64,000 bases of DNA from Thermoplasmata archaeon (GTDB lineage: Archaea > Thermoplasmatota > Thermoplasmata > GCA-020350865): the NCBI GenBank assembly GCA_020348445.1, contig CP070751.1, positions 628,321-692,320 of the forward strand. The letters run 5' to 3'. Both the position numbers and the translations under genes were made by a program. The notes beneath the pieces were generated by a model that was not told where the DNA came from, did no database searches, and saw nothing but the letters and a program-made list of their open reading frames with translations. Below are positions 16,239 through 40,069 of the stretch, piece after piece; within the stretch, counting starts at the first letter, position 1, and each line of letters starts with the position of its first letter.

Positions 16239-16312
16239 GGGCCTATAGCTTAGACTGGTGGAGCGCCCGGCTGATAACCGGGAGGTCGAGAGTTCAAATC
16301 TCTCTAGGCCCA
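16239..16312 (+). tRNA. tRNA-Ile(GAT), intronless
   Basis: GGGCCTA/TAGGCCC acceptor stem, CCGG-CT-GAT-AA-CCGG anticodon arm, GAGAG-TTCAAAT-CTCTC T arm. Confidence 0.96.
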
Positions 16313-16337
16313 CTTACCTTTTATATTAAATTGATTC

Positions 16338-16622
16338 GTGGGCCTATTGATGTTCGAGTTATGCTAGAGATCGCTAAGTCTTAAGCTCGAACATCTCTAG
16401 GCCATAAATTAAGGATGGTGTTCTGAGCATCTCTAGGCCTCTGGTTATCAATTCAATCAAATTAATACGTGGGCCTATTGACGCTCAGGTTATGCTAGAG
16501 GTTGCTATTTCTTAAACCTGAGCATCTCTAGGCCCACAAGAATTAAGAATGGTGTGCTGAGCATCTCTAGGCCCCCAAGAATTAAGAATGGCGTGCTGAG
16601 CATCTCTAGGCCCTTGGTTATC
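16338..16622 (+). repeat. Array of two palindromic cassettes and three 36-39 nt units, each ending in the tRNA-Ile 3' end (CATCTCTAGGCC)
   Basis: CATCTCTAGGCC occurs five times; cassettes at 16338-16403 and 16469-16537; both modules end in TGGTTATC. Confidence 0.9.
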
Positions 16623-39553: not shown

Positions 39554-39793
39554 ATGGTTTCTAATCTGGAGTATGATGACATGGATACCACAGCATTACT
39601 CGGTATGTTCTCGATAACTGCAGGTCTGGTTTTCTTCTTCACAAGCGGTGCATTCTCGATAATCAGCTCTTCCCTGGGAATGTTATTCCAGGGAATTGGG
39701 ATAGCTCTGATTTACCTGGGGATCGCATTTATTTTATGGAATGTCCTGAGCTCGCTGAACATCTTTTTAGAAAGGTTCGTGAAAAGAAGTTGA
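39554..39793 (+). CDS. Small two-TM membrane protein
   Basis: 79 aa, two hydrophobic helices. Confidence 0.5.
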   Translation: MVSNLEYDDMDTTALLGMFSITAGLVFFFTSGAFSIISSSLGMLFQGIGIALIYLGIAFILWNVLSSLNIFLERFVKRS

Positions 39794-39800
39794 GTGGAGG

Positions 39801-39903
39801 GCACCCCGTCCAGATTTATTTTGATCTATCGTCTTAGTGTTCGAGTTATAATTTTTCATCAATTGTTTCTTAAGCTCGAACACTAGACGGGAGCACGAAT
39901 CAA
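39801..39903 (-). repeat. Palindromic cassette of the same family as the tRNA-Ile array, carrying the tRNA-Glu 3' end
   Basis: TAGTGTTCGAG (39835-39845)/CTCGAACACTA (39875-39885) arms, GACGGGAGCAC (39886-39896), GAATCAA. Confidence 0.85.
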
Positions 39904-39920
39904 ATAAAAAATAATATAAG

Positions 39921-40069
39921 TGCTCCCGTCGGGATTTCCGAGCCGTGGGAGGAAATGGAGTGGTGAGTCCCTCACCACGGGCATTCGAACCCGAGTCGTC
40001 GGCTGTCCTTGGCAATTTTAGGAAAGCCTCGAAAGGCCGAAATGATTGGCCGGTCTACACTACGGGAGC
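39921..40069 (-). tRNA. tRNA-Glu(TTC) with two introns (37/38: 40005-40029; 59/60: 39935-39983)
   Basis: GCTCCCG/CGGGAGC acceptor; removing 25-nt and 49-nt inserts gives a 75-nt cloverleaf; BHB-type junctions. Confidence 0.9.

Follow-up and report, generated by a model that had tools for sequence, protein, structure and literature searches.

A two-hairpin module behind tRNA-Glu in a Thermoplasmata archaeon belongs to a genus-specific family and carries a loop inverted in place

Results

Layout of the tRNA-Glu locus

The window analyzed here is a stretch of 64,000 nt from the 5.16-Mb source genome of a Thermoplasmata archaeon (G000), which was compared with the genomes of four congeners (G001–G004); coordinates are those of the window unless marked otherwise. 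A tRNA-Glu(UUC) gene on the minus strand is followed on its 3′ side by two adjacent hairpins, a degenerate flank and then the stop codon of the neighboring gene:

39790–39792: stop codon of the neighboring gene
39799–39834, minus strand: degenerate 3′ flank, in which the direct copy of the tRNA end is reduced to 4–5 nt (39830–39834)
39835–39885, plus strand: hairpin 2, perfect 11-bp arms around a 29-nt core
39835–39845 and 39875–39885: arms of hairpin 2, 11 bp (3-nt linker plus 8-bp family stem)
39846–39874: asymmetric core, 29 nt, reading TTAT...CTTAAG on the plus strand, reversed relative to the tRNA
39886–39896, minus strand: X′, the 11-nt inverted copy of X1, perfect (11/11)
39897–39919, minus strand: AT-rich spacer, 23 nt, the loop of hairpin 1
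39920–39930, minus strand: X1, the last 10 nt of the tRNA plus one trailer base, 5′ arm of hairpin 1
39921–40069, minus strand: tRNA-Glu(UUC) gene, 149 nt, read directly from the sequence
39934–39982, minus strand: T-loop insert (the "U" unit), 47–49 nt
40005–40029, minus strand: canonical 25-nt anticodon-loop intron of tRNA-Glu

The tRNA-Glu gene, as it stands, is missed by both ARAGORN and Rfam; ARAGORN calls tRNA-Glu(ttc) once the T-loop insert has been removed, and it calls the G001 orthologue directly. The initial annotation of this DNA had described a cassette customized to tRNA-Glu, and every element that it named was found, at coordinates correct to within 1 nt. The outer arms are indeed copies of the tRNA-Glu end (the inverted copy matches at 11 of 11 positions), and the spacer between them, rich in T and TATA-like, closes with the TTGATTC-type motif that the units share. 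The partial tRNA-end copies that had been placed farther out are present but weak, consisting of a 4–5-nt piece and, after an AT-rich spacer-like stretch beyond 39830, a 7/10 look-alike of the tRNA end. Of the usual direct copy of the last 13–15 nt of the tRNA the Glu unit keeps only 4–5 nt, and its T-stem-derived linker has been replaced. Both strands of the segment fold as two adjacent hairpins, with fold z-scores of −4.5 and −5.9. Mirror similarity past the arms of the Glu hairpin falls short of significance, an equally high score being reached by 143 of 2000 shuffles (~7%), and an extended mirror copy of the spacer beyond the hairpin was accordingly dropped as a candidate feature.

A family of modules behind tRNA genes

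The Glu unit is one of a family of gene-less two-hairpin DNA modules, ~100 bp in length, that lie 3′ of tRNA genes and are specific to the genus. In hairpin 1 the last ~11 nt of the tRNA are followed by an AT-rich loop of 23–24 nt, after which the tRNA end recurs as an inverted copy; hairpin 2 has an 8-bp stem, free in sequence but complementary, around a loop of 27–29 nt with the ends TTAT and TCTTAA; and the module normally closes with a direct copy of the last 13–15 nt of the tRNA. In the flank test this layout is constant (stem of hairpin 1, 9–11 bp; its loop, 22–24 nt; hairpin 2 after a further 3–4 nt), and at least 20 units share the same consensus in a spacer of 23–24 nt.

A covariance model (R1) was built from 20 units with the Glu unit left out. 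Its score for the Glu hairpin is 56.5 bits on the plus strand (E about 1e-14), which bears out the proposal that tRNA-Glu is a second locus of the cassette family. With this score and the fold z-scores given above, the pattern is not a product of chance. The comparison locus in the window is tRNA-Ile:

16239–16313 (within 16239–16613), plus strand: tRNA-Ile(GAT), followed by two standard-orientation units
16347–16397 and 16478–16528, plus strand: hairpins of the tRNA-Ile units, both R1 matches on the tRNA strand

After the two full tRNA-Ile units, window positions 16518–16613 contain 2.5 copies of a 39-nt partial repeat, in which the 3′ hairpin arm of the second unit is joined to a tRNA-Ile end copy and a short linker.

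A pattern search of the 5.16-Mb source genome found about 45–55 hairpins of one design, most of them 40–80 nt behind tRNA genes, on the tRNA strand and often in tandem, and R1 gives 51–56 matches there and 24–44 in each of the four congeners. The family amounts to about 50 units per genome, at no fewer than 25 tRNA loci, and is present in all five genomes of the genus; R1 matched none of 36 other genomes of the class, and a scan for the exact consensus across 185,579 species genomes gave matches only in four Thermoplasmata/Methanomassiliicoccales MAGs. Absence of the motif from other tRNAs and related genomes, which would have counted against the initial annotation, was not observed; the motif is common both in the source genome and in the genus. 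A metagenome scan for strain variants of the Glu unit gave no matches. An Rfam search of the units returned no meaningful match, full-text literature searches found no published description, and the family has apparently not been described before.

Structure is kept more strictly than stem sequence. Pairing holds in 95% of 654 cells of the 8-bp stem, all eight pairs covary, and none of 500 shuffles is as good; at the loop ends of 82 distinct units nine positions are 100% invariant and a tenth is 99% so. Two further ideas about the family did not survive. The source-genome means (9.6 versus 8.3 of 11) suggested better preservation of the inverted copy than of the direct one, but tRNA-Glu of G002 shows the opposite; and the stem arms are not customized copies of the T-loop, as arm variants and T-loop variants do not go together from locus to locus.

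About nine copies stand alone, away from tRNA genes (G000 70975, 395435, 924365, 2621051, 3219251, 3473536, 3486805, 4029795 and 4955901). They have the same two-hairpin layout, with a stem of the CCCTTAGG type, and they share only about 130–150 nt, in which the stem of the first hairpin resembles the tRNA-Ile end. Most lie ~190 nt upstream of housekeeping-type genes, in divergent orientation. The genes beside the eight or nine stand-alone copies gave no lead, being unrelated and of housekeeping type.

Orientation of the loop across loci and species

As had been proposed, the core at tRNA-Glu is flipped relative to the tRNA: R1 gives 56.5 bits on the plus strand versus 14.2 on the tRNA strand. 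In the flank test of the source genome 27 units were standard and five reversed. The fifth "flipped" call (genome position 4442417) has two stem mismatches, is weak and is probably non-family, and when it is dropped four reversed tRNA-linked units are left, or about 4 of 30–45 (about 10–15%), each reversed in a single lineage. The orthologous Glu loci of the four congeners were placed by the neighboring membrane-protein gene (~73–75% DNA identity), and at all four (G001, G002, G003 and G004) the unit is in standard orientation with its direct tRNA-end copy intact. The remaining loci compare as follows:

Pro(CGG): reversed in G000; standard in four congeners
Ala(GGC): reversed in G000; standard in two congeners, no unit of that type in two
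Leu(GAG): reversed in G000; standard in G001
Gly(GCC): standard in G000; reversed in G001

Loop centers were aligned with those of orthologues both re-inverted and as they sit:

Pro: 13/16 re-inverted, 7/16 as it sits
Gly: 13/17 re-inverted, 9/17 as it sits
Glu versus G003: 12/17 re-inverted, 9/17 as it sits

Against all its orthologues the Glu loop center matches at 7–12 of 17 positions when re-inverted and at 9–10 of 17 as it sits.

These comparisons bear on orientation-free insertion, which the initial annotation had offered as one source of the reversed core and by which a mobile hairpin core would have entered the Glu flank independently and landed backwards. Units are in fact gained and lost as blocks, and the Glu loop centers are too diverged to prove homology on their own. 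However, the Glu spacer, inverted copy and 5′ linker run in the standard direction and have homologues in the congeners, whose Glu units are standard in four of four cases; in the empty and filled site described below the core does not move alone but together with the spacer and the tRNA-end copy, as one block; and the reversed loops at Pro and Gly are still homologous to their standard orthologues. As these two loops match when re-inverted, independent backward insertion is excluded at those loci, and for Glu we regard it as highly improbable. The loop of Glu hairpin 2 was inverted in place after the G000 lineage split from its congeners.

An artefact of assembly or sequencing at the hairpin was also considered, as the four flips of G000 are all specific to one assembly. 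Arms of 8–11 bp are, however, far too short to confuse an assembler, a flip is found as well in the independent complete assembly of G001, and at Glu the flanking sequence differs too, beyond the loop; an artefact is accordingly given next to no weight.

The flips are rare, lineage-specific inversions in place. Orientation is stable among species ~25% apart in the neighboring gene, and each locus is flipped in one lineage only; such stability over species-level divergence is unlike a programmed switch.

Recombinases and mobile elements

Site-specific inversion had been the other reading offered for the reversed core. In its fullest form the loop would be a regulated switch, inverted in a programmed way by a Xer-like recombinase, an invertase or some other recombinase; an asymmetric core between perfect inverted arms, both orientations within one genome, and invariant loop ends that a protein could recognize and that stay intact after a flip would all suit it. 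But orientation is conserved across 4–5 species per locus and every flip belongs to a single lineage, only ~10–15% of units are flipped, and Pro and Glu do not share the same end points, the event at Glu being non-reciprocal. Nor is there a recombinase nearby, in a genome of 82% completeness with 35,300 bases masked; that the window holds no recombinase gene, as the initial annotation had said, was confirmed. The stability of orientation across species, the rarity of the flips and their differing end points speak against site-specific inversion generally, and a programmed switch appears very unlikely.

Elsewhere in the source genome a search for Phage_integrase found two fragments only, and a search for Resolvase found a single serine recombinase gene, at 4.02 Mb, which is 3.3 Mb away from the Glu locus. 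The two fragments, which look like remnants of integrated elements, each lie ~100 nt from a tRNA gene:

G000 1864225–1864380: tyrosine-recombinase C-terminal fragment, by Leu-TAA
G000 2412539–2412649: tyrosine-recombinase C-terminal fragment, by Met

Integration of casposon or CRISPR type (with a 14–15-bp target duplication at tRNA 3′ ends) was rejected for want of a Cas1-family integrase: Cas1 was not found in any of the five genomes of the genus, which are 80–91% complete. No reverse transcriptase was found in G000–G002. Genes of the Y1_Tnp family occur in all five genomes, and the source genome carries two 100% identical copies of an IS200-like element of 661 bp with one Y1 transposase gene (G000 2860309–2860969 and 3338969–3339629), an element that is probably active. 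The same AAATGAATA motif stands in front of its subterminal hairpins. The Y1 transposase was rejected as mobilizer of the modules, the hairpins at the ends of the IS200-like element being different and no unit lying within kilobases of it in G000.

In a 3-kb stretch of the source genome (G000 4640570–4643566) ARAGORN predicts a cluster of about 30 tRNA genes, all on one strand, which may be carried by a mobile element. Among the R1 matches listed, none is inside the cluster.

Gain and loss of units

At tRNA-Ala(GGC) the site is empty in G001 and filled in G004, and the flanks align on both sides. The block that G004 has in addition comprises spacer, inverted copy, linker and hairpin and repeats the last 15 nt of the tRNA. 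A unit thus comes and goes as one whole block with a 15-nt direct repeat of the tRNA end at its borders, a turnover that is equally consistent with target-duplicating insertion and with precise loss by recombination between the repeats. The simplest idea of how each inverted copy comes to match its own tRNA is that a local template switch on the adjacent tRNA end might produce it.

The modules might be substrates of some unrecognized, structure-specific DNA process of insertion or recombination, which would read the invariant loop ends and build the outer arms from the end of whichever RNA gene it lands on, with flips as a by-product and the units as raw material of T-loop introns. This reading draws support from the T-loop insert of tRNA-Glu, which is 94% identical to a free-standing unit of a congener (see below); we rate it as a speculative and improbable one.

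How the loop was inverted

At Pro(CGG) both flanks of the flipped loop are untouched, so the end points of the inversion lie inside the 8-bp arms. At Glu the 5′ side is standard throughout (spacer, inverted copy and linker), and the 3′ linker, normally a T-stem copy, is the reverse complement of the 5′ linker, which makes the arms perfect over 11 bp. Where the end points of the inversions can be read they differ, falling inside the arms at Pro and past the 3′ arm at Glu, where the event is non-reciprocal. From the rarity of the flips and the stability of orientation we infer that the Glu inversion was accidental, a rare mutation to which the inverted arms of the hairpin itself gave rise, and not the work of a programmed switch.

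The most likely route is a hairpin-driven template switch during replication. Replication template switching is documented as a single-step source of inverted hairpin loops, extended stems and compensatory changes at several bases (PMC8794818). At Glu the new strand, during replication or repair, would have copied the 5′ linker and arm, would then have taken the same-sense strand as template, so that loop, arm and linker were copied backwards, and would have returned imprecisely, with the direct tRNA-end copy almost lost as a result. Such an event would explain the 11-bp palindrome that includes the linker, the replaced 3′ linker and the lost direct copy, and it would also explain the double substitutions in stems with few wobble pairs (7 of 654 cells). 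The case draws on one locus, Glu, where the mirror copy predicted past the arms is not significant; the flanks at Leu(GAG) agree with no clean model, reciprocal or non-reciprocal, and the Pro data are accounted for just as well by simple reciprocal exchange between the 8-bp arms.

A competing cause of the flips is reciprocal recombination, whether general homologous, illegitimate or by cruciform processing, with the short inverted arms as partners. The Pro(CGG) flip is clean, its flanks are unchanged and its 8-bp arms are perfect, all as reciprocal exchange would have it. At Glu, however, an exchange within the arms would keep the T-stem-derived 3′ linker and the direct copy, and an exchange in the outer arms would move the 3′ linker to the 5′ side; neither is seen. 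Arms of 8–11 bp are, moreover, short for homologous recombination. We consider reciprocal exchange unlikely as the general cause. The template switch remains the favored route, and the combined interpretation, in which a genus-specific module of structure-maintained fold-back DNA was flipped in place by an accidental template switch, seems to us somewhat probable as a whole.

DNA element or RNA gene

The family most likely represents structure-maintained fold-back DNA, comparable to REP/MITE or tRNA-linked repeats, a weakly held judgment in which an RNA gene is taken to be the less likely case. The stem is nearly pure Watson–Crick, with G–T in 1.1% of cells (7 of 654) and A–C mismatches in 2.9%. 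Against a passive DNA element, the 100% invariant loop ends and the fixed spacer length imply sequence-specific recognition by some factor, and a TATA-like box at fixed distance together with a purine-ended linker at the hairpin foot would fit a small-RNA gene.

If the units were small-RNA genes or processed RNA elements, the Glu flip would make a changed or dead RNA. In about half of the units a TATA-like box occupies positions −19 to −10 relative to the inverted copy, the linker where the start site would presumably fall is T-rich and purine-ended, the stem covaries strongly, and possible inner pairs beside it would be G–U wobbles on the tRNA-sense strand. The tRNA-linked repeats (TLRs) of E. 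coli likewise duplicate the 3′ end of the RNA before them, and their number includes three sRNAs (PMC8144298). On the other hand, G–U makes up only 1.1% of stem cells and A–C is commoner (2.9%), one arm of hairpin 1 is the tRNA 3′ end and would be cut away by 3′ processing, the T-runs right after the tRNA should stop read-through, Rfam has no match, and covariation can come from template switching alone (PMC8794818). In the mismatch strand test the source genome by itself has eight A–C and no G–T mismatches, hinting that the opposite strand folds, although half of these A–C mismatches belong to the outermost pair, in which the 3′ base hardly varies; over the 82 units, which are related to each other, the A–C:G–T ratio is 19:7, or 13:7 without the outermost pair. 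An RNA gene is thus doubtful, if a serious alternative, and fold-back DNA is retained as the preferred reading.

Comparison with known systems

There is a likeness in layout to the TLRs of E. coli (PMC8144298, citing Egan and Landy 1978), which are short non-coding units 3′ of tRNA or rRNA genes, one to five per locus, as the modules are. Both close by repeating the 3′ end of the RNA gene that precedes them, over 18–19 bp in TLRs and 13–15 nt here, a copy that is present in the module family generally and nearly lost at Glu. Most TLRs, like the modules, are without an assigned function. Unlike TLRs, the modules have an inverted tRNA-end copy at a fixed 23–24 nt and a second hairpin with invariant loop ends, and they belong to one genus with an archaeal host; the two are likened by layout alone.

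Small hairpin-associated inversions are known in plastid DNA. The loop inversions attributed to template switching in PMC8794818 resemble the Glu case in that a loop is reverse-complemented in one lineage and the stem extended to perfect pairing, and the compensatory stem changes without wobble intermediates seen there are found in the modules as well. Those examples, however, concern RNA genes with very short loops, whereas the Glu loop, for which template switching is the proposed mechanism, is 29 nt long and sits in a repeated, intergenic module.

Like REP/BIME/REPIN and MITE-like repeats, the modules occur as tens of small gene-less hairpin copies, often tandem or clustered, in which structure is conserved more than stem sequence. 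REP/BIME/REPIN extragenic palindromes are mobilized by RAYT (Y1 HUH) transposases; no RAYT-like gene is flanked by units here, and the modules, unlike REP, are tied to tRNA ends and have outer arms copied from the local tRNA. With the attC sites of integrons they share an imperfect hairpin, a variable stem, a conserved architecture and arrangement in arrays. They differ from attC in that units of ~100 nt hold no ORF, no gene cassettes lie between them, no integron integrase was found, their conserved bases are at the loop ends instead of in outer R″/R′ boxes, and their outer arms copy the tRNA. Finally, an asymmetric segment between inverted repeats that is seen in both orientations recalls the Hin/Gin/Fim switches; unlike these, the modules have no adjacent invertase, arms of only 8–11 bp, a 29-nt insert that controls no promoter or gene, and an orientation that is fixed over species-level divergence.

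The T-loop insert of tRNA-Glu

The T-loop insert of the tRNA-Glu gene, probably a non-canonical intron, has a free-standing counterpart of 94% identity 3′ of the intact tRNA-Glu in congener G001, and related copies occur elsewhere in the source genome:

G001 CP070739.1 about 3169258–3169319 (locus L004): free-standing U unit, with its own copy of the last ~21 nt of the tRNA
G000 2879778–2879838 and 5100360–5100416: related U-unit copies, one in the T-loop of a Gly(CCC)-like tRNA and one downstream, near tRNA-Sec

In a constrained fold the insert forms a relaxed bulge-helix-bulge, whose central helix arises because the palindromic T-loop pairs with its own partial copy. These observations suggest that end-duplicating repeat units can become non-canonical tRNA introns.

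A T-loop insert in tRNA-Arg(TCT) is present in G003 (L092) and G002 (L094) and absent in G000 (L076) and G004 (L090); gain or loss of T-loop inserts therefore occurs from one species of the genus to another. The anticodon of the syntenic tRNA-Glu is CTC in G004 (L003, G004:C4) versus TTC in G000, G001 and G002, which reflects either an anticodon change or replacement by a paralogue at the orthologous locus.

Significance

As an ordinary kind of mutation, the Glu flip removes the case for a hidden inversion switch at this locus. What is unusual is the family itself, with ~50 modules per genome, each customized by a direct and an inverted copy of its tRNA end, with loop ends that are 100% invariant and with conservation at orthologous loci across the genus. 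The U unit, a downstream repeat in one species and a T-loop insert of tRNA-Glu in another, offers a concrete, testable route by which archaea may gain non-canonical tRNA introns.
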